A DNA stretch of 64,000 nucleotides, taken from assembly GCA_016187395.1 (NCBI GenBank), contig JACPJV010000033.1, positions 2,151 through 66,150 of the forward strand, in the 5' to 3' direction. Within the stretch, counting starts at the first letter, position 1; every line of letters begins with the position of its first letter. Positions 4,287 through 61,704 of this stretch are shown in pieces. Made by a program: the position numbers and the translations under genes. Origin of the DNA: Candidatus Aenigmatarchaeota archaeon (GTDB taxonomy: Archaea; Aenigmatarchaeota; Aenigmatarchaeia; GW2011-AR5; JACRAC01). Below the pieces are notes generated by a model. The model searched no databases. It worked only from the letters and a program-made list of their open reading frames with translations, and was not told the DNA's origin.

Positions 4287-5288
4287 CTATTTCGCAAATC
4301 CCTTCAGAAATTCCCCGAGATTTCCCAGGCCAGGTATTTCTATCCTGTTTAAGTTAGTTCCCTGAGGAATGTATTTCATTCCAAGGAATACTCCCAGCGC
4401 CTGGGCTCTTTGATCCTGAGTAAGCTTGTCGCCAACGCCCTCCAGAAATCTCTCAACGTTTTCTTTTACGCCCTTTGCATCAGCTTCTGCTTTGGTGAAA
4501 GCAGTATATGCATCTGCATCGGCCAGAACCCTCCTGGCAGCAGCCTCCTGCTCAGCCTGGAACCTTCTTGACAGCGCTGCCTCGTCTTCCTCTGCAAGGT
4601 TGATTATTATTCTTGGAGCCTCTATGCGCAGGTTCAATTCTCTTGCCAGTTCTCTGTTCAGCTCAGGGAGTTTCTCTCTCACTTCCCTGGGTAGTTGTTC
4701 CTTCCCGTCCATAACGTCGTAATTCTTCGCCATTGCATTCACATGTTCAATGAACCTGTCTTCAGCAGAAGGAACAGCCTGCGATTCTCCGGTTTCCGTC
4801 TCTCCAAAATCCCTTGTAAAGCCCACCAGGAATCGCTGCAAGTCAGGATCGTCATCAATCACGTCTCTCGGAATGTCAGTAAGATTATAGACCTCTTTTG
4901 CACTGTCCCTCGCATACGCCTGATATCGGGGATTGCCTCTAAGAACTTTTCGCGCATCAAGGCGCAGGAACAGGCTTATGTCCATAGTAGCCCTTCCCAA
5001 TCCCTTGAACTCCACCTCTGCATCCTGCTTCTCTCTCCTTGCAGCCGCAAGATTCACTATGTAACCTGTGTCATTGATTGTTTTTACATAGATAATCTTC
5101 CCTCTGGAAGCTGCCGAGTATCGCTTTGTCCATGAATTATAAGATATAGCCACGTGCGTATCAGGAACCTCTCTGATTCCTACCCACTCTACCATGCCCC
5201 TGGCTTTGCTTCGCTGTCCATTTACTTCATCCAGCCTATATTTAGTAACAATCTGGTCTTCTTTCAGCACACCCAGCCTATGAACCAT
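4287..5288 (-). CDS. hypothetical protein with an Ala/Glu-rich coiled-coil C-terminal half
   Basis: 333-aa ORF. The C-terminal AEQEAAARRVLADADAYTAFTKAEADAKG stretch is faintly reminiscent of SPFH/flotillin tails. The family is not established. Confidence 0.6.
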   Translation of the reverse strand: MVHRLGVLKEDQIVTKYRLDEVNGQRSKARGMVEWVGIREVPDTHVAISYNSWTKRYSAASRGKIIYVKTINDTGYIVNLAAARREKQDAEVEFKGLGRATMDISLFLRLDARKVLRGNPRYQAYARDSAKEVYNLTDIPRDVIDDDPDLQRFLVGFTRDFGETETGESQAVPSAEDRFIEHVNAMAKNYDVMDGKEQLPREVREKLPELNRELARELNLRIEAPRIIINLAEEDEAALSRRFQAEQEAAARRVLADADAYTAFTKAEADAKGVKENVERFLEGVGDKLTQDQRAQALGVFLGMKYIPQGTNLNRIEIPGLGNLGEFLKGFAK

Positions 5289-11067: not shown

Positions 11068-11378
11068 TTTTTCACCTCACGAATCCTTCCGTGTAACCAT
11101 GAAACTACTTCAGGATATTTCATATCCCCGTTTGCTATTTTCAGCGAAATATATATAAGCCCGTTATAGGGCGCTTCTATCTCAACTCCGTTCATTTTCA
11201 GGAAAAGTTTCATGGTTTCGGTCGCCGTTCTTTTGTTGCCGTCAGTGAAAACGTGATTGCGTATGATTTCGCACCAATAGATAGAGGCGATGGATGCAAC
11301 ATCCTTTTTCCTATTGCCCGTAAACCTTTTCGATTCTACTCTGGATATAATAAAATGCAGCTTGCCTTTGTCAGCCAC
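11064..11378 (-). CDS. doc: Doc/Fic-family toxin (death-on-curing)
   Basis: Fic motif HVFTDGNKRTA. The frame stays open upstream to 11474 and encodes Doc-like LLLSEEEIIEINRRQNGG, but there is no ATG/GTG/TTG before the GTG at 11378. Confidence 0.75.
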   Translation of the reverse strand: MADKGKLHFIISRVESKRFTGNRKKDVASIASIYWCEIIRNHVFTDGNKRTATETMKLFLKMNGVEIEAPYNGLIYISLKIANGDMKYPEVVSWLHGRIREVKK

Positions 11379-11486
11379 GCCTCCATTCTGCCTCCTGTTT
11401 ATCTCAATTATTTCCTCTTCTGAAAGAAGAAGTATGCCGTCGATAATATCACCTGAAAATATAGCGACCAGAAGCTAATAAAAAGG

Positions 11487-12408: not shown

Positions 12409-13761
12409 ATGCCCCTGCAGAAAGTGCTTGCAAGAATAAAGCCGTCGCAGAAAGAAATTGATGAAGTCCATAAATTCCTCGGCCGCCTTGAGGACGAAAC
12501 AAGAAAGCTGGGCTGCGAAGGCCTTGCTGCCGGAAGCATCGGCAAGCACACGTGGCTGAAAGGCGACCACGACATAGACTGGTTTTTGATGTTTCCAAAA
12601 GAAACCAGCCGCGAACTTCTTGAAAAAGAAGGTCTGGCTATCGGAAGAAAGCTCGCGAAGGCGTTGCGCGGAAAAATCCAGATAAAATACGCAGAGCATC
12701 CGTATACGAGGATATTGTTCAAAAAATATCACATCGATGTCGTTCCTTGCTACAAGATCGAGAAAGGCGAGCGTATCATAAGCGCCGTTGATAGGTCTCC
12801 TTTGCACCTTGCTTTTATAAATGAAAAAATGCCCGCAAAGGCGCAGGATGACGTGCGCCTTCTAAAACAATTCTTGAAAGGCACGCATGTGTATGGCAGC
12901 GACCTGAGGCGCAGCGGCTTTTCTGGATACATAGCAGAGCTGTTGGTAATTAAATATGGCTCTTTTGCTGATACAATCAAGAATGCGGCAAAATGGAAAC
13001 CCGGTCTTGTCATAAACATGGGAGCATCCAGGATATCGAAGTTGGAGAAAGTGCCTCTTACGATAATAGACCCGGTGGATGAGAAGCGAAATGTGGCTGC
13101 CGCCCTGAACGAAGAGAACTTTCTCCGCTTTGTGTCGGTATGCAACCAGTTTTTGAAGAAACCCTCCTTGGATCATTTCTTCCCGAAGGATCTTGCATTG
13201 AAGGGGGTGGAAATCAAAAATTTGCAGTCACGCGGCACTTACTGGTTTGCGTTTGTTGGAAAAGCGCCGGATGTCATAGATGACATCCTCTGGCCCCAGA
13301 TGCGCCGCGCCTCCGAACGCATCGGAAACCTTCTGAAGAAAAATGATTTTGAAATATACACAAAGGGCGTTTTTGCAGGCAAAAAAATGACCCTATGGTT
13401 TGAGCTGGAGGAAGGGCAGAAGCCGCATGCGGAAAAAATGACAGGCCCTCCTATATACGCGAAAAACAATTTCACGCAGTTCCTGGAAAAATATTCGGAT
13501 TCAGAGTTCGGCATAGCAGTCGAAGAAGACAAGGTAGTGGCGTATAGAAGAAGGCCGATGCAAAAGGCATCAGAAATAAAAACGATATCTAAAAAGCCGC
13601 TCGAATGGATGCAGCAGAACGGAATTCCCGGCAACATAGCGTCTTCGCTCAGGAAAGGAAGATTTACAGAGCAGAAAAAATTCTGGAGATTTGTGAGAAA
13701 AAACAAGGAACTTTCAAGATATATGAGAAGAAAATATTTTGAGACGGCTTTGTCATTATGA
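12409..13761 (+). CDS. cca: CCA-adding enzyme (archaeal class I tRNA nucleotidyltransferase)
   Basis: GSIGKHTWLKGDHDIDWFLMFP nucleotidyltransferase motif, with length and layout typical of archaeal Cca. Confidence 0.9.
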   Translation: MPLQKVLARIKPSQKEIDEVHKFLGRLEDETRKLGCEGLAAGSIGKHTWLKGDHDIDWFLMFPKETSRELLEKEGLAIGRKLAKALRGKIQIKYAEHPYTRILFKKYHIDVVPCYKIEKGERIISAVDRSPLHLAFINEKMPAKAQDDVRLLKQFLKGTHVYGSDLRRSGFSGYIAELLVIKYGSFADTIKNAAKWKPGLVINMGASRISKLEKVPLTIIDPVDEKRNVAAALNEENFLRFVSVCNQFLKKPSLDHFFPKDLALKGVEIKNLQSRGTYWFAFVGKAPDVIDDILWPQMRRASERIGNLLKKNDFEIYTKGVFAGKKMTLWFELEEGQKPHAEKMTGPPIYAKNNFTQFLEKYSDSEFGIAVEEDKVVAYRRRPMQKASEIKTISKKPLEWMQQNGIPGNIASSLRKGRFTEQKKFWRFVRKNKELSRYMRRKYFETALSL

Positions 13762-14961: not shown

Positions 14962-15292
14962 TGCCAGGTTTTATCATATTCTGAAGTTCATCCTGGGATT
15001 CTTTCATCATAGCTTCAAGCCTTTTTTCTTGCTTTTCAAGCCCCTTGATTTTCATGTCTATCTGCATCACGATCTCTTCCAGCTCTTCTTTCAGTTTTTC
15101 TTTCGTGCTTTTTAAGAGAACAGGCCCGACAGACTTGAATATGTCCCCTTTTGCATTAGCCACCTCCTCCAATGCCCTTTCTATTTCAATTTTTTGCATT
15201 GACAAAGACTGCTTCTGCATGACTACATTTTGCAGATGCTGGTTCTGTTCCTGGGCCCTGCCGAGTATTTCCTGAATCTCTTCATTCGCCAT
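14942..15292 (-). CDS. pfdB: prefoldin subunit beta
   Basis: Coiled-coil/beta-hairpin layout (QKQSLSMQKIEIERALEEV...DIFKSVGPVLLKSTKEK...LEKQEKRLE). The start was chosen at MANEEIQ, preceded by gtgaggt. Confidence 0.85.
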   Translation of the reverse strand: MANEEIQEILGRAQEQNQHLQNVVMQKQSLSMQKIEIERALEEVANAKGDIFKSVGPVLLKSTKEKLKEELEEIVMQIDMKIKGLEKQEKRLEAMMKESQDELQNMIKPGSGKQAG

Positions 15293-15469
15293 CGCAATCA
15301 ACCTCACGATTGCTCGCAAGCAATCGTGCATTCACCTTACACCTCTCGTTTCGCCGCGGCGACGGAAGCAAATGACATTTTCTGCAGAAAATGTCCATTC
15401 ACTCGCTGCATTCACTTTCAACCCCACGTTTTCCCGCAGGAAAACGTGCATTCACTTACACACCCGCCG
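15293..15469 (-). repeat. leader-hairpin array L1a (between rpoP and pfdB)
   Basis: Hairpins cacgattgct-cgca-agcaatcgtg (15305-15328), gacattttc-tgca-gaaaatgtc (15374-15395) and cacgttttcc-cgca-ggaaaacgtg (15425-15448) are joined by tgcattcac/cctcac linkers. Confidence 0.75.
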
Positions 15470-15595
15470 CTACACAGCCTTGACGCGCCTTACAACTTCA
15501 GGCCTTGCCTTTACTAATATGCGAAAACCGCAGTAGCTGCAGCGCACCTTGTCTTCTATTTCAACCTCCTTCTTGCACGAAAAACATCTATACAT
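15470..15595 (-). CDS. rpoP: DNA-directed RNA polymerase subunit P (Rpo12)
   Basis: Hand translation gives MYRCFSCKKEVEIEDKVRCSYCGFRILVKARPEVVRRVKAV, a zinc ribbon of typical RpoP size. It lies between rpl37ae and pfdB, as in many archaea. Confidence 0.8.
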   Translation of the reverse strand: MYRCFSCKKEVEIEDKVRCSYCGFRILVKARPEVVRRVKAV

Positions 15596-15690
15596 CGTTG
15601 ACACACCTCACATTTCGCTGCAGCGAAATGTGCATTCACATTCGACCTCACGTTTTCCCGCAGCAAAACGTGCATTCACCTTTCACACTA
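15596..15690 (-). repeat. leader-hairpin array L1b (between rpl37ae and rpoP)
   Basis: Hairpins cacatttcgc-tgca-gcgaaatgtg (15609-15632) and cacgttttcc-cgca-gcaaaacgtg (15649-15672). On the minus strand the array ends in gtgaggtgtgtcaacg directly before the rpoP ATG. Confidence 0.75.
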
Positions 15691-19313: not shown

Positions 19314-19380
19314 CTAGACACACCTCACGTTTTGCGAAGCAAAACGTGCATACACCTTCAACCTCACGATTCATCTTCAC
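19314..19380 (-). repeat. leader-hairpin unit L2 upstream of psmB
   Basis: cacgttttgc-gaa-gcaaaacgtg (19326-19348) flanked by cacctcac and tgcatacacc. The minus strand ends in gtgaggtgtgtctag directly before the ATG. Confidence 0.7.
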
Positions 19381-20119: not shown

Positions 20120-20216
20120 TATAGCAAGCCAACTTAATGAAAGGCATACCAAAAGTTGGTTTGCTATATGGGAAAGCACAAATGTCATGTTCCATTTCAT
20201 TTGTGGTTTCACTATA
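20120..20216 (-). mobile_element. TA-bracketed double-hairpin (MITE-like) element, copy 2
   Basis: The reverse complement aligns end to end with 53017-53112, about nine-tenths identical by eye. Confidence 0.6.
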
Positions 20217-22034: not shown

Positions 22035-22826
22035 CTAGTAAACCCTGAAGTCAATGCGATACTTGAAAATCCTTGGCCCCCATGGAAGCACTTTCTGTAC
22101 CTGCAAAAAATTTATCCTCCTTTTTATTGAATTTCTAATCTTAGCCTTTTCCGCTTTTATTTCGTCCTCCCTGCAGAAACAGTAGTAGTGAATTAGTGCA
22201 TTTTTCTTCGCGCATTTTTCTGCGCTATTTAAAAATTCTTTTGCCTTCTCTGGAAGGGGCATTATTATCCTGTCAAATTCACCCCTGTATTTTGTCGCAA
22301 GCTTTTTCACGTCGCCTCTTTCAATCTCCACCATATCTTCCACCTTATTCAATGTCGCATTTTTCCTGAAATATTTCACAGCTGAAGGATTCAACTCTAT
22401 GCCGGTGACTTTCGCAGGCTTCGCTTTCTTTGCAATCACTATTGCAAATGGTCCTACGCCTGCAAAGAATACAGCAACTTTTTCGCCCGGCTTTACCTTT
22501 TCAGCTATTCTCATCCTTTCAGTAGATTCACGTGGGGAGAAATATGCCTTTCTCACATCCAACAGAAACCTGCACCCGCTTTCTGCATGCACAACCTCTG
22601 TATTCTTGCTTCCTGCTATTATGCGATAAGCACGCTTTCTATATTTACCCTTTCTCGGCCCTGCCTTCATCAGGACGCTTTTCACGTTCTTGTGCCTTGC
22701 CATGATTTCTTTTGCAGCTCCCTTGGCATTCCTCGCTTTTTCCATTATAGCCACGGCGCCCTCGCGGGAACCTATTATTTCAAATGCAGGGAGTTTTGAC
22801 ATTATAAGTCTTTGGGTTTCATACAT
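22035..22826 (-). CDS. Trm5/Taw22-type (Met-10+ like) tRNA methyltransferase
   Basis: FLLDVRKAYFSPRESTER, VAVFFAGVGPFAI and TGIELNP match the TRM5/TYW2 family. Confidence 0.8.
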   Translation of the reverse strand: MYETQRLIMSKLPAFEIIGSREGAVAIMEKARNAKGAAKEIMARHKNVKSVLMKAGPRKGKYRKRAYRIIAGSKNTEVVHAESGCRFLLDVRKAYFSPRESTERMRIAEKVKPGEKVAVFFAGVGPFAIVIAKKAKPAKVTGIELNPSAVKYFRKNATLNKVEDMVEIERGDVKKLATKYRGEFDRIIMPLPEKAKEFLNSAEKCAKKNALIHYYCFCREDEIKAEKAKIRNSIKRRINFLQVQKVLPWGPRIFKYRIDFRVY

Positions 22827-22857: not shown

Positions 22858-22969
22858 GGGCCTGTGGTGTAGCTTGGTTATCATTCGAGCCTTGGGACAG
22901 ACTGACGCTTCGAAGAAGCGTCTTTTTGCATCATAGCTCGCGACGCCAGTTCAAATCTGGCCAGGCCCA
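22858..22969 (+). tRNA. tRNA-Pro (anticodon UGG) with a 38-nt intron at 37/38 (22897-22934)
   Basis: Acceptor GGGCCTG/CAGGCCC, U8, A14, G18G19, anticodon stem CGAGC/GCTCG, loop CTTGGG..A, T-arm GCCAG-TTCAAAT-CTGGC, discriminator A, no encoded CCA. The intron contains the hairpin gacgcttc-gaa-gaagcgtc. Confidence 0.85.
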
Positions 22970-36699: not shown

Positions 36700-36863
36700 G
36701 TGTATGTACATGAGTGAATGGACGTTTCTCTGCAGAGAAACGTCAGTTTGCCTCCGCTGCAGAGAAATGTGAGGTGTGAATGAATGCAGCGAGTGAATGG
36801 ACATTTTCTGCAGAAAATGTCATTTGCTTCCGTCGCCGCGGCGAAACGAGAGGTGTGTTTACG
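36697..36863 (+). repeat. leader-hairpin array L4 (plus-strand orientation)
   Basis: Contains gacgtttctc-tgca-gagaaacgtc and gacattttc-tgca-gaaaatgtc. 36781-36856 is the perfect reverse complement of 15339-15414. The array ends in gagaggtgtgtttacg directly before the ATG. Confidence 0.8.
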
Positions 36864-40500: not shown

Positions 40501-41100
40501 TCAACCAAAGGATTTGGCGAGTTTTCGCTTCTCTAGTTTATTTCTAGAATAGGCATGCCTCTTTTCCACAATGTATTGAAGAACTATTGAAGCAGAAGAG
40601 CTAAGGTTCATGCTTTCAATAATACCATACATAGGTATTTGGATACAGAAATCGCAGGCGTCTAAGGCTTCTTGTGATAAACCACGGGTTTCATTCCCGA
40701 ACCATACGGCCAGATGATGCTGGATATACTTCCCTTCCGAAAGAGGAACGTTCTTTTTCCCTATCGGATGCGAAGATGTTCCTACATTGATAAAATTTTT
40801 TTTAGCCAAGTACTGTAAGCATTCAGCTGTAGAAGAAAATTTCTTCACATATAGCCATTTAATTCCAGAAGCGCTTAAGTTAAGCAATTTAGGATCCTCA
40901 CGCATATTCTGCCAATCTTTCGGAAGTTTCAACCTGCCATCATCAATTATGTATACTTTACCAACGCTCAACGCTTCCGCTGTTCTGATTATTCCCGTCA
41001 AATTGTTGATGTATTTGGGATTTTCGACAACACAAACCAACGTTCTGGACCTGAAGACCGAAGCCCTGTCGGCCTTTTCTCGCAGAGATGCTCGCGACAT
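40501..41100 (-). CDS. SpoU/TrmH-family RNA 2'-O-methyltransferase
   Basis: VWFGNETRGLS and IPMYGIIESMNLSSSASIVL motifs. Confidence 0.8.
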   Translation of the reverse strand: MSRASLREKADRASVFRSRTLVCVVENPKYINNLTGIIRTAEALSVGKVYIIDDGRLKLPKDWQNMREDPKLLNLSASGIKWLYVKKFSSTAECLQYLAKKNFINVGTSSHPIGKKNVPLSEGKYIQHHLAVWFGNETRGLSQEALDACDFCIQIPMYGIIESMNLSSSASIVLQYIVEKRHAYSRNKLEKRKLAKSFG

Positions 41101-48269: not shown

Positions 48270-49508
48270 ATGAACATCCTCGAGAAAGCCTGCCTCATAT
48301 TGCAAAAGCCCGTTTGTGATCACTGCCTGGGCAGGCAGTTCGGCCAGCTGCTCAGCGGCACGAACAACGAAGAAAGAGGTACGCTATTAAGAAATGCAGC
48401 AGCTATGAGCATAGACAAGGAGAAATTAAATGAGGAGGATAAGCGGCTGGATTTGTCGAATTTTTCCGGGATTAGATTTCATTATCTGAAGGAAAAGATG
48501 CAGCAAAAGCCGTGCAGCGTATGCAGCGGCATCTTTAATGAGATTGAAAAATACGCAGGCAAGATTGCGGAAAAAACCAAAGGCATTGATTTTTCCACCT
48601 TTCTCATAGGCACAAAGCTTTCTGCACAACTTTTAGAGAACGAGGAGCAGCTCTGGGAACGCATAGGAATAGACTGGGCAGAGCAGCTTAAGGCAGAGCT
48701 GAACAGGGAAATAGGCAGAACGATTGAGAAAGCGCTGAGGAAAAAATTCAATCCAAAGAATCCGGACATCGCTTTTTTGGTTGATATCTCAAAGGGAGCA
48801 GTTTCTATCAGTATTAACCCGTTGTTTATTTATGGAGAATACCAGAAGCTTGCGAGAGGCATACCGCAGACAAAATGGCCTTCCGGAAAATACAAGACGA
48901 GCGTGGAACAGATTATCGCAAAGCCGTTTATGAGAAGAACGAGAGGAAAAGCGCACTCATTTCATGGAATGGGCAGAGAGGATATAGATGCCCGCTGCCT
49001 TGCCTGGAGGCCGTTTGTTCTTGAGATAAAGGAGCCGCAAATAAGGCATATGGACCTGAAAAAAACAGAGAAAGAAGTGAAAAAGGACAGAAGGGTGAAG
49101 GTGAGAAAGATGCGCTGCTCCGATATGAATGAAGTCCGCATGATAAAGGAGACGAGAGCAGACAAGACATACCTTGCAATTATAGAATGCAGGAAAAAAA
49201 TAGACAAGCTTCTAATCCGAAAACTGCCTTCTCTGAAGACAGAGATAAGGCAGCGCACGCCTGAAAGGGTCTTGCACAGGCGCGCAAACCTGCTGAGAAG
49301 ACGGAATGTGAAGATGATAACAGCCAGGCTTCTAAGCGCGAAAAAAATGCAGCTTAAGGTGAAGACAGACGCAGGCCTTTACGTCAAAGAGCTTGTAAGC
49401 GGCGATGGAGGCCGTACAAAACCAAGCCTTTCAGAATTGCTTCAAAATGAATGCGTATGCAAGGAGTTGGATGTGATAAAGATCGAGATTCCGAAGAGGA
49501 AAAAATAA
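48270..49508 (+). CDS. pus10: tRNA pseudouridine synthase Pus10
   Basis: N-terminal CDHCLGRQFG zinc motif, GREDIDARCLAWRPFVLE and C-terminal RTPERVLHRR...GLYVKELVSGDGGRTKPS. Confidence 0.9.
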   Translation: MNILEKACLILQKPVCDHCLGRQFGQLLSGTNNEERGTLLRNAAAMSIDKEKLNEEDKRLDLSNFSGIRFHYLKEKMQQKPCSVCSGIFNEIEKYAGKIAEKTKGIDFSTFLIGTKLSAQLLENEEQLWERIGIDWAEQLKAELNREIGRTIEKALRKKFNPKNPDIAFLVDISKGAVSISINPLFIYGEYQKLARGIPQTKWPSGKYKTSVEQIIAKPFMRRTRGKAHSFHGMGREDIDARCLAWRPFVLEIKEPQIRHMDLKKTEKEVKKDRRVKVRKMRCSDMNEVRMIKETRADKTYLAIIECRKKIDKLLIRKLPSLKTEIRQRTPERVLHRRANLLRRRNVKMITARLLSAKKMQLKVKTDAGLYVKELVSGDGGRTKPSLSELLQNECVCKELDVIKIEIPKRKK

Positions 49509-52965: not shown

Positions 52966-53016
52966 AGTTTATAAAATACAAATTACATAAAACTCTGAAA
53001 GAAAAAATAATGGAGT

Positions 53017-53112
53017 TATAGTGAAACCACAAATGAAACGGAACATGACATTTGTGCTTTCCCATATAGCAAACCAACTTTGCTATGCGGTTTATTAAGT
53101 TGGTTTGCTATA
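53017..53112 (+). mobile_element. TA-bracketed double-hairpin (MITE-like) element, copy 3 (compact reference copy)
   Basis: tatagtgaaac-cacaaatg-aaacggaacatga-catttgtg-ctttcccata followed by tagcaaaccaactt-...-aagttggtttgctata. Confidence 0.65.
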
Positions 53113-60372: not shown

Positions 60373-60702
60373 CTAGGCAATCCGTGCGCCTCCCAGGATC
60401 TCTGGCAGCTTCTTCGTGAACTCCGATTTTGACAAAACAAAAAAGCACCCCTCCCTTTTGGCTGCTTCCCTGAGCTCAACGTCAGCGTGAGACAGGTATC
60501 CGACTATTTTTGCTTCGGGATTTTTCTCTCTCAATCTGAATACAGCTTCAGAACCAAACTTATTCAAATCAAGCAGAATCAAGTCTGCGTCCTTGATCCC
60601 GAAAATATTGTTGAAAAACTGCACGTCCTTGCCAGTTTGTCTGGCTATTTCAGCTATCCTGCCTTTGAAAAATAAGTCAGATACGAGCGCGGCTGTCCTC
60701 AT
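60373..60702 (-). CDS. receiver-like (CheY-fold-like) small protein
   Basis: DLILLDLNK and KIVGYLSH resemble a response-regulator receiver domain, but the N-terminal acidic pair is not evident. Confidence 0.45.
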   Translation of the reverse strand: MRTAALVSDLFFKGRIAEIARQTGKDVQFFNNIFGIKDADLILLDLNKFGSEAVFRLREKNPEAKIVGYLSHADVELREAAKREGCFFVLSKSEFTKKLPEILGGARIA

Positions 60703-60731
60703 GAATATTTTTGTATCTAAAAAGATTAAAA

Positions 60732-61003
60732 TGCCCCCGCCGAGAGTTTCGCCAATCCCATTTCATATTACCGGAGCGAAGCTCCGAAAGTTCTTTTGGG
60801 GTTCTCCAAGACCTTTTCTTTCAAGAAAAGGGATTGGATTCGAACTCGGGTTTCAAGGTATCTGCAATTCAAATACCGCAACCTTGTGTCCTATTTGCTT
60901 CCAAGCGAAGTCTTCCGCGCGCAGCTGGTTCGCTGCGGTCGGCGTGTATTATTTCTCCCTTGCTCACGCACGCTGCGCTTGGACCAGGCTAGACTACGAG
61001 GGC
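60732..61003 (-). tRNA. tRNA-Arg (anticodon GCG) with three introns: 60895-60983 (D-loop), 60860-60875 (37/38), 60746-60838 (59/60)
   Basis: Acceptor GCCCTCG/CGGGGGC, U8, A14, G18G19, D-stem GTCT/GGAC, anticodon arm CAAGG-TTGCGG.A-CCTTG, T-arm CCGAG-TTCGAAT-CTCGG, discriminator A. Each intron sits in a helix-bulge-helix-bulge-helix fold. The spliced product is 74 nt. Confidence 0.85.
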
Positions 61004-61026
61004 TTTGTAGAAATATGGGAGCAATC

Positions 61027-61034
61027 ATTTAAAG
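61027..61034 (-). promoter_or_regulatory. TATA-like box for tRNA-Arg
   Basis: The minus strand reads tttaaat about 25-31 nt upstream of the tRNA 5' end. Confidence 0.45.
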
Positions 61035-61085
61035 TAATGCGAGAAAAGCATACGTTTTTAAGCTCTCGCCCCAAAACTAAGAGCC

Positions 61086-61241
61086 ATGAGATGCTCATCT
61101 TGCAATCTTGAATTAGAAACAGAGGAAAGGTGGACCCGGTTCAAGTGCCCTGCCTGCGGAGAAAATGAAATAAAACGCTGCGACACCTGCAGGAAGCGAG
61201 GCATCCTTTACAGGTGCGAGTGCGGCTTTGAAGGGCCGTAA
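61086..61241 (+). CDS. 51-aa double zinc-ribbon protein (the type often found next to EF-1beta)
   Basis: Hand translation gives MRCSSCNLELETEERWTRFKCPACGENEIKRCDTCRKRGILYRCECGFEGP. Confidence 0.7.
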   Translation: MRCSSCNLELETEERWTRFKCPACGENEIKRCDTCRKRGILYRCECGFEGP

Positions 61242-61301
61242 AAAATCCCGCTCTTTAGCGGAGTTTTTTCACAAAGTTAGAAAGGTCTTAGTGTATCCAC
61301 T

Positions 61302-61354
61302 GAAAAGTTCTTTTGGGGTTCACCAAGACCTTTTCTTTCAAGAAAAGGGATTGG
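61302..61354 (+). repeat. copy of the tRNA-Arg T-loop-intron segment, forming the EF-1beta leader
   Basis: gaaaagttcttttggggttcaccaagaccttttctttcaagaaaagggattgg compared with 60786-60837 shows one indel and one substitution. It contains the 9-bp palindrome ccttttctt-tca-agaaaagg. Confidence 0.8.
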
Positions 61355-61608: not shown

Positions 61609-61704
61609 TATAGCAAACCAACTTAATAAACGGCATGGCAAAGTTGGTTTGCTATGTGGGAAAGCACAAATGACATGTTCCGTTTCATTTGTGGTTTCAC
61701 TATA
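61609..61704 (-). mobile_element. TA-bracketed double-hairpin (MITE-like) element, copy 4
   Basis: The reverse complement is nearly identical to 53017-53112. It starts 8 nt after the EF-1beta stop. Confidence 0.65.

Follow-up and report, generated by a model that had tools for sequence, protein, structure and literature searches.

A tRNA-Arg(GCG) gene with three predicted bulge-helix-bulge introns in a Candidatus Aenigmarchaeota archaeon, one of them sharing a repeat with a nearby intergenic spacer

Introduction

Bulge-helix-bulge (BHB) introns, the endonuclease that cuts them out and the ligase that joins the exons are already known from archaeal tRNA genes, in which the published maximum is three introns per gene (PMC3239211, PMC4033280), with positions 37/38 and 59/60 among the documented sites (PMC3239211). 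Here we describe a further case of the uncommon multi-intron BHB genes, a tRNA-Arg(GCG) gene interrupted in its D-loop, anticodon loop and T-loop, which lies on a 64,000-nt stretch of contig JACPJV010000033.1 (the whole of this stretch is called the window below) in a metagenome-assembled genome (MAG) of Candidatus Aenigmarchaeota, a member of the DPANN archaea.

Three described systems come closest. In the Thermoproteales, as reported in PMC4033280 and PMC3239211, which cite the original SPLITS-type searches (Sugahara et al. 2007/2008), a tRNA gene may have as many as three BHB introns, which lie in the D-arm, the anticodon loop and the T-arm (including 59/60) and are removed by a splicing endonuclease, as we suppose here too; as described there, the hosts are hyperthermophilic crenarchaea with a heterotetrameric (alpha-beta)2 enzyme of their own bearing a Crenarchaea-specific loop, whereas our MAG is DPANN and of mesophilic type. 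ARMAN-2 (Candidatus Micrarchaeum acidiphilum; Fujishima et al. 2011, PMC3239211; Hirata et al. 2012, PMC3488258) is likewise a DPANN archaeon with 59/60 introns, and its epsilon2 endonuclease cuts both strict and relaxed BHB motifs in vitro; it belongs to a different phylum and has genes with two introns, where the gene described here has three, one of them at a D-loop site after G19. An earlier note, made from the letters of the window, had likened the gene to those of Thermoproteales and ARMAN-type archaea, a guess of which the ARMAN-type part came close, the host being DPANN. Finally, the heterogeneous tRNA-Thr(GGU) locus of Caldiarchaeum subterraneum (Sugahara et al. 2012, PMC3293823), which serves as a model of how an intron may be gained when a mobile element integrates, resembles our case in that intron content varies between close relatives and repeat DNA links the intron to another site. 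There the element is 1.8 kb long and encodes a recombinase, whereas here it is a 51-nt hairpin-bearing intergenic repeat, and no tRNA fragment has been duplicated.

The gene and its spliced product

We consider it very probable that the locus is a functional tRNA-Arg(GCG) gene of this Candidatus Aenigmarchaeota archaeon, with three BHB introns that would be spliced by proteins. Its parts, and the likely signals that flank them, are as follows.

60732..61003, minus strand: whole tRNA-Arg(GCG) gene, 272 nt, four exons and three introns (from ARAGORN on the spliced 74-mer and an excision scan)
61027..61033, minus strand: TATA-like box TTTAAAT, -30 to -24 from the first tRNA base, a putative promoter element judged by its sequence
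60984..61003, minus strand: exon 1, 20 nt, GCCCTCGTAGTCTAGCCTGG; acceptor 5' strand, U8 and A9, D-stem 5' strand, D-loop as far as G18 G19
60895..60983, minus strand: intron 1, 89 nt, in the D-loop between G19 and A20
60876..60894, minus strand: exon 2, 19 nt, ATAGGACACAAGGTTGCGG; A20 to G37, with the rest of the D-loop, the D-stem 3' strand, the anticodon stem 5' strand and the loop with anticodon GCG
60860..60875, minus strand: intron 2, 16 nt, at the canonical position 37/38
60839..60859, minus strand: exon 3, 21 nt, ACCTTGAAACCCGAGTTCGAA; A38 to A59, with the anticodon stem 3' strand, a 4-nt variable region, the T-stem 5' strand and the T-loop bases TTCGAA
60746..60838, minus strand: intron 3, 93 nt, in the T-loop at 59/60
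60732..60745, minus strand: exon 4, 14 nt, TCTCGGCGGGGGCA; U60, the T-stem 3' strand, the acceptor 3' strand and discriminator A73 (A60732)
60719..60731, minus strand: T-rich tract TTTTAATCTTTTT directly after the discriminator, likely an archaeal terminator

All the tRNA parts claimed in the earlier note (acceptor, D-stem, anticodon arm and T-arm) are present on the minus strand where it had placed them, and its TATA-like box at about -28 corresponds to the TTTAAAT listed above. Cutting at the junctions it gave (60984/60894, 60876/60859 and 60839/60745) yields in silico the 74-mer that it had described, which ARAGORN reports as tRNA-Arg(gcg). The acceptor stem is formed by GCCCTCG (61003-60997) and CGGGGGC (60739-60733), 7 bp including one U5.G68 wobble, and exon 4 ends without an encoded CCA. 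The 4-bp D-stem (GTCT/GGAC) carries the D-loop AGCCUGGAUA; the anticodon arm, CAAGG-TTGCGG|A-CCTTG, has a 5-bp stem and the loop UUGCGGA, and is followed by the 4-nt variable region; the T-arm is CCGAG-UUCGAAU-CUCGG once the interruption (TTCGAA|T) is removed. The result is a canonical cloverleaf with the conserved U8, A14, G18 G19, U33, T-loop and G53-C61. Identity elements of tRNA-Arg are C35 and A20, and both are found, C35 within the anticodon GCG and A20 as the first base of exon 2, in a type-I tRNA with a short variable region. A split or permuted tRNA gene is ruled out, the four exons being collinear within 272 nt.

Transcription, cleavage and ligation are what we infer from the DNA sequence. 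Transcription from the TATA-box promoter would give a precursor of about 272 nt, in which each pair of intron-exon boundaries could fold into a helix, a 3-nt bulge, a 4-bp helix, a second 3-nt bulge and a further helix. The archaeal splicing endonuclease (EndA) would then cut after the second nucleotide of every bulge, and an RtcB-type ligase would join the four exons. RNase P and 3' processing would trim the ends, and CCA would be added by the enzyme encoded at 12409-13761.

Detection and the question of chance

The unspliced gene escapes standard searches: ARAGORN reported no gene at all when run on the window, and Rfam found no tRNA, either in the window at gathering score or in 60500-61300 at E<=10 (weak matches to SNORA5, BSnc120 and GHRLOS were set aside as noise). 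Such genes can make small DPANN genomes look short of essential tRNAs.

BHB-like patterns by themselves say little, for at equal thresholds the window holds 170 of them and ten shuffled versions hold 102-170; as stand-alone evidence they were therefore dropped. The excision scan looked instead for patterns whose removal leaves a tRNA. All relaxed BHB candidates on both strands were removed singly and in pairs (12,859 constructs), and the products were passed to ARAGORN, its own anticodon-intron option switched on. Positives came from just two loci, the tRNA-Arg gene (with excision of exactly 60895-60983 and 60746-60838) and a tRNA-Pro gene described below, and about 58,800 constructs from five shuffled windows gave no ARAGORN positive at all. 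The conjunction of BHB pattern and tRNA is specific. ARAGORN calls of a tRNA-Tyr(ata) at 11280-11385, not reproduced on the isolated segment, and of a tRNA-Phe(gaa) at the tRNA-Pro locus, a mis-fold of that gene, were rejected as spurious.

These results bear on the idea that the resemblance to a tRNA gene is fortuitous, or that the region is protein-coding on the plus strand. Two plus-strand open reading frames (ORFs), 60593-61111 and 60711-60992, do overlap the gene, and generic BHB-like patterns are, as just noted, as common in shuffled sequence; yet neither ORF has a Pfam match, no shuffled window yields a tRNA after excision, and orthologous or homologous tRNA genes exist at 38 other loci. 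The idea is already refuted by the shuffles, by the syntenic ortholog and by the covariation considered below, and we give it virtually no credence.

Bulge-helix-bulge motifs

Under the BHB rule applied here, the 5' bulge consists of two exon bases and one intron base, the central helix has 4 bp, and the 3' bulge consists of two intron bases and one exon base. The T-loop intron has a strict motif (5+4+8 bp), in which the T-stem serves as the outer helix, TTCG (60844-60841) pairs with CGAA (60751-60748) between bulges AAT and ACT, and the inner helix is CCAATCCC (60837-60830) with GGGATTGG (60759-60752). RNAfold gives this motif unprompted, in the isolated arm as well as in the 272-nt precursor (minimum free energy, MFE, -99.5 kcal/mol, z = -3.75). 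The 37/38 intron is in the canonical register, with the anticodon stem as outer helix, the central helix TTGC (60881-60878)/GCAG (60865-60862) and bulges GGT and ATA; its motif is a relaxed form. At the D-loop intron, the central helix GCCT (60989-60986)/AAGC (60900-60897) has three of its four pairs and is flanked by bulges GGT and AAA, the inner helix is 7 bp long (CCAAGCG, 60982-60976, with CGCTTGG, 60907-60901), and a 4-bp outer helix, TCTA (60993-60990)/TAGG (60893-60890), lies one register off the mature D-stem. The earlier note had the D-loop central helix with its C-A mismatch and the 7-bp inner helix right, and missed this shifted outer helix. No C/D-box motifs were found in the introns.

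The syntenic ortholog

The strongest single test short of RNA data is provided by comparison with a related contig. Four syntenic contigs (L158-L161), reached through homologs of the neighbouring aEF1B gene, share with the window the order PHP, CarS, GT2, two EamA genes, a gene for a 106-aa protein, a gap, and aEF1B (69% amino-acid identity). In the gap of L158, ARAGORN finds a tRNA-Arg(gcg) at 4607-4721 with a single 41-nt intron at 37/38, the spliced form of which is identical to that of the window at 70 of 74 positions. Neither its D-loop, AGCCTGGATA, nor its T-loop, TTCGAAT, is interrupted, and both are identical to the junctions that we predict in the window gene. The four differences amount to two compensatory changes of acceptor pairs (U5.G68 to G.U and C6-G67 to G-C). 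About 30 nt upstream of the L158 gene there is an A/T box comparable to TTTAAAT in the window. In the window the tRNA-Arg gene has the opposite orientation to that in L158, although the flanking genes are collinear. More distant aEF1B homologs do not adjoin a tRNA-Arg.

Recurrence of the intron sites in other DPANN archaea

A search for the exact 20-nt exon 1 in one genome per species gave 37 loci, nearly all in DPANN MAGs (Micrarchaeota, Woesearchaeota and Nanoarchaeota, with some labelled Methanosarcinales), most of which resolve as tRNA-Arg(GCG) or tRNA-Arg(CCG), the majority of these being interrupted. An intron after G19 is found at nine of these loci (L005, L009, L013, L014, L019, L021, L025, L035 and L036), always with a perfect central helix and the same shifted 4-bp outer helix. 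Introns at 37/38 occur in most loci, five of which (L013, L014, L020, L025 and L036) have the same central helix as the window gene, and introns at 59/60 occur in 13. All three sites are occupied in L019, L025, L035 and L036 (L035 by spliced alignment only, with no ARAGORN product), whereas three loci (L010, L031 and L032) are intronless, their continuous sequence being that of the predicted exon junctions. In three others (L006, L024 and L030) the D-loop intron lies two bases further 3', with the central helix CTGG/CCAG. L027 has a non-canonical intron in the anticodon stem, about 31 nt into the gene.

Introns at the same site are conserved in structure, and their sequences are unrelated between loci. 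The window gene shares with the three-intron genes of Woesearchaeota and Nanoarchaeota (L019, L025, L035 and L036), and with the micrarchaeotal L024, the identical 5' exon, the same three sites, the same BHB register and central helices built on GCCT, TTGC and TTCR; it differs from them in the sequences and lengths of its introns and in the C.A mismatch of its D-loop helix, which is perfect there. For some loci the assignments are less complete. Enumeration of BHB candidates combined with ARAGORN gave no product for L001, L004 and L035, and no credible tRNA-Arg for L002, L005, L006, L007, L015, L017, L023, L024, L026 and L030; the spliced aligner misread L001, L012, the T-loop of L019, L023, L026-L028 and L034, which the enumeration partly mended.

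Among 21 distinct spliced or intronless sequences, pairing holds in 99.5% of cloverleaf cells, and both partners vary in 10 of 21 pairs, including four of the five pairs of the T-stem, which straddles the 59/60 intron. None of 500 shuffles reached the observed values, and sliding the partners by 1-3 columns reduced pairing to 35-53%. The central proposal of the earlier note, a tRNA-Arg(GCG) gene with three BHB introns of which two are at non-canonical positions, is thus supported by ARAGORN, by the excision scan and its shuffles, by the continuous junctions of L158 and by the recurrence of the sites in DPANN archaea.

With tblastn, the proteins encoded next to the gene in the window showed no synteny with the 37 loci, and the 16-mer GGACACAAGGTTGCGG had no tRNA-Arg relatives among the metagenome matches listed, which were chance matches and an unrelated repeat family. 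That family (L052, L059, L065, L083, L099, L124, L143 and other contigs) contains GGACACAAGGTTGCGGGCGTAGGGATTGAACCAATCCCTCC and looks like a tRNA-derived, T-arm-like repeat of an unrelated organism. In seven Micrarchaeota loci (L011, L015, L022, L026, L029, L033 and L037), the 3' end of tRNA-Arg(CCG) (..GTCGAGGGCG) is repeated at least once, 50-70 nt downstream; these copies could be integration remnants (att duplications) or a further processed extension.

A repeat shared by intron 3 and an intergenic spacer

The 5' half of the T-loop intron recurs close by, as the following two copies of a direct repeat (family D10), 517 nt apart.

60787..60837, minus strand: repeat copy E', nt 2-52 of intron 3 (its 5' half), including the 5' strand of the inner BHB helix; 50/51 by blastn
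61304..61354, minus strand: repeat copy E, in the spacer between an HVO_2753-like zinc-finger gene (61086-61241, plus strand) and the aEF1B start codon (61356, plus strand)

At 98% identity (50/51), the two copies clearly share a recent origin. The 3' end of the intron, GAAATGGGATTGG, is an inverted 12/13 copy of its own start, the two pairing as the inner helix of the BHB motif. An independent Logan assembly (L173; 3,927 nt with 0 mismatches) starts inside the repeat at 60835 and carries the intron-specific variant, the 3' half of the intron and exon 4, so the arrangement of intron 3 is not an assembly chimera. In L158, the same spacer holds a diverged E-like element, about two-thirds identical, in which the hairpin has been kept through changes on both strands; the tRNA-Arg gene of L158 has no T-loop intron. 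The zinc-finger gene and aEF1B adjoin each other directly in two further lineages. No BHB motif was seen by eye around the spacer copy on either strand.

We tentatively raise the possibility that the 59/60 intron is a young acquisition from the hairpin-repeat material of intergenic spacers. The repeat may either have created intron 3 or have overwritten an older intron by gene conversion.

Short repeats of this general kind are frequent in the window, with 17 direct families and 13 inverted pairs in intergenic DNA. Interspersed repeats and hairpins are exemplified by 224-274, 20165-20215, 53016-53066, 61653-61703 and 15287-15680, and there is a 76-nt inverted pair, 100% complementary and 21 kb apart (15339-15414 and 36781-36856), as well as palindromes bounded by TATAG...CTATA. 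Perfect hairpins with stems of 7-10 bp and GAA/TTC triloops number seven, against about 0.1 expected from shuffles (examples are at 277-374, 19326-19348, 22904-22922 and 85-101), and an array of four at 277-374 also gives nested BHB-like patterns. The introns of tRNA-Arg and tRNA-Pro hold hairpins of the same style.

Is the gene functional?

Several observations weigh against a working gene from which all three introns are spliced as BHB introns. The near-identity of the repeat copies implies a recent event, and intact exons alone are no proof that the gene still works; there may be a second tRNA-Arg(GCG) elsewhere in the genome; and ARAGORN, by which the sequences in the covariation count were chosen, has a bias towards cloverleaves. 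As to the motifs, the D-loop central helix has a C.A mismatch where the nine other loci sharing the site have a perfect helix, and RNAfold does not predict this central helix. The inner helix at 37/38 is essentially a loop, the RNAfold MFE structure favouring pairing of GGU with AUU; the earlier note was correct about the registers and bulges at all three sites and about the perfect T-loop motif. That the endonuclease would be of broad specificity is a supposition drawn from the literature, in which cleavage of non-canonical or relaxed sites is known only from endonucleases that have extra loops, and tRNA disruption in DPANN is greater where the alpha4 enzyme bears such a loop (PMC3239211, PMC5829648). 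Among the roughly 64 ORFs of the window, Pfam found neither EndA (PF01974/PF02778) nor RtcB, so the genes of the window lend no support to a capacity to cut such sites.

Some of this would fit a gene that was recently inactivated, with repeat or hairpin insertions in the D- and T-loops that stay in the transcript, and with CGC and CGU read by another tRNA-Arg copy elsewhere. Such an event would be young, part of intron 3 being a 98% copy of a nearby intergenic repeat, in a genome full of short repeat and hairpin families; moreover, the nearest relative, L158, lacks both of the non-canonical introns, and the D-loop motif has its mismatch. Yet both insertions sit exactly at the intron sites of many other DPANN tRNA-Arg genes, each flanked by a BHB geometry whose register is exactly the one that gives back the mature sequence, and intron 3, unlike a random insertion, has at its 3' end a sequence (GGGATTGG-CGAA-AC) that suits the end of the repeat as well as the T-loop. 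The exons, the promoter-like box and the terminator are intact, the acceptor stem has changed in a compensatory manner since divergence from L158, and no other tRNA-Arg was found in the window. Inactivation therefore seems improbable to us.

We regard it as still more improbable that the gene works while at least one of the three interruptions escapes standard BHB cleavage, the D-loop intron, for example, leaving by another route, or inefficient splicing limiting the level of the tRNA. The C.A mismatch, and the fact that the D-loop motif is not the MFE structure, could be read in this way, as could the non-classical tRNA-Pro gene of the window, if substrates here are relaxed. We know of no alternative mechanism that removes such introns, which counts against this explanation, as do the perfect BHB motifs at the D-loop site in nine other lineages. 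Cleavage of relaxed motifs by broad-specificity archaeal endonucleases is, besides, documented (PMC3239211, PMC5829648). A functional tRNA-Arg(GCG) gene with three BHB introns is the interpretation that we prefer.

The host and other genes of the window

Assignment of the MAG to Candidatus Aenigmarchaeota is accompanied by archaeal markers in the window (FttA, an archaeal CCA-adding enzyme and aEF1B), and Pfam matches of the approximately 64 ORFs indicate an archaeal housekeeping region. FttA matches a protein of a Candidatus Aenigmarchaeota MAG at 100% identity, with the next relative at 69%. An archaeal host with tRNA maturation genes close to the locus agrees with the interpretation preferred above. 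Genes relevant to tRNA are the following.

12409-13761: CCA-adding enzyme gene (Pfam)
22035-22826: Trm5/TYW2 gene (Pfam)
22858-22969, plus strand: tRNA-Pro(UGG) gene with a 38-nt intron at 37/38, missed by default ARAGORN
40501-41100: SpoU methylase gene (Pfam)
48270-49508: Pus10 gene (Pfam)

The tRNA-Pro gene has a non-classical splice motif, in which a 3-bp central helix is combined with 2x2 internal loops, and its D-stem has a U13.U22 mismatch. Three Aenigmarchaeota-like homologs of FttA/aCPSF1 (P0072, P0096 and P0103) are about 1,050 aa long and have extra PF14528 and PF14890 domains, which we interpret as intein-related, a sign that inteins may have inserted into this essential ribonuclease.

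Implications

For annotation, the gene illustrates that standard finders miss multi-intron tRNA genes, a point relevant to apparent tRNA gaps, to which attention has been drawn in DPANN and Asgard genomes (PMC5829648) and also in Nanobdellota genomes that are complete (bioRxiv 10.64898/2026.05.13.725050). The three-intron maximum now very probably extends to an Aenigmarchaeota MAG, and the reuse of the same three sites in tRNA-Arg genes of several DPANN phyla (by MAG labels) points either to old introns or to strongly preferred insertion sites.

Of these results, the repeat common to intron and spacer most deserves further study. "Snapshots" of intron origin have been called for by reviewers of the field (PMC4033280), and the 51-nt repeat offers a concrete and testable lead on that origin. 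If the T-loop intron did arise in the way tentatively proposed here, the locus would be a rare snapshot of a non-canonical tRNA intron born, or remodelled, from local repeat DNA and not from a large mobile element.

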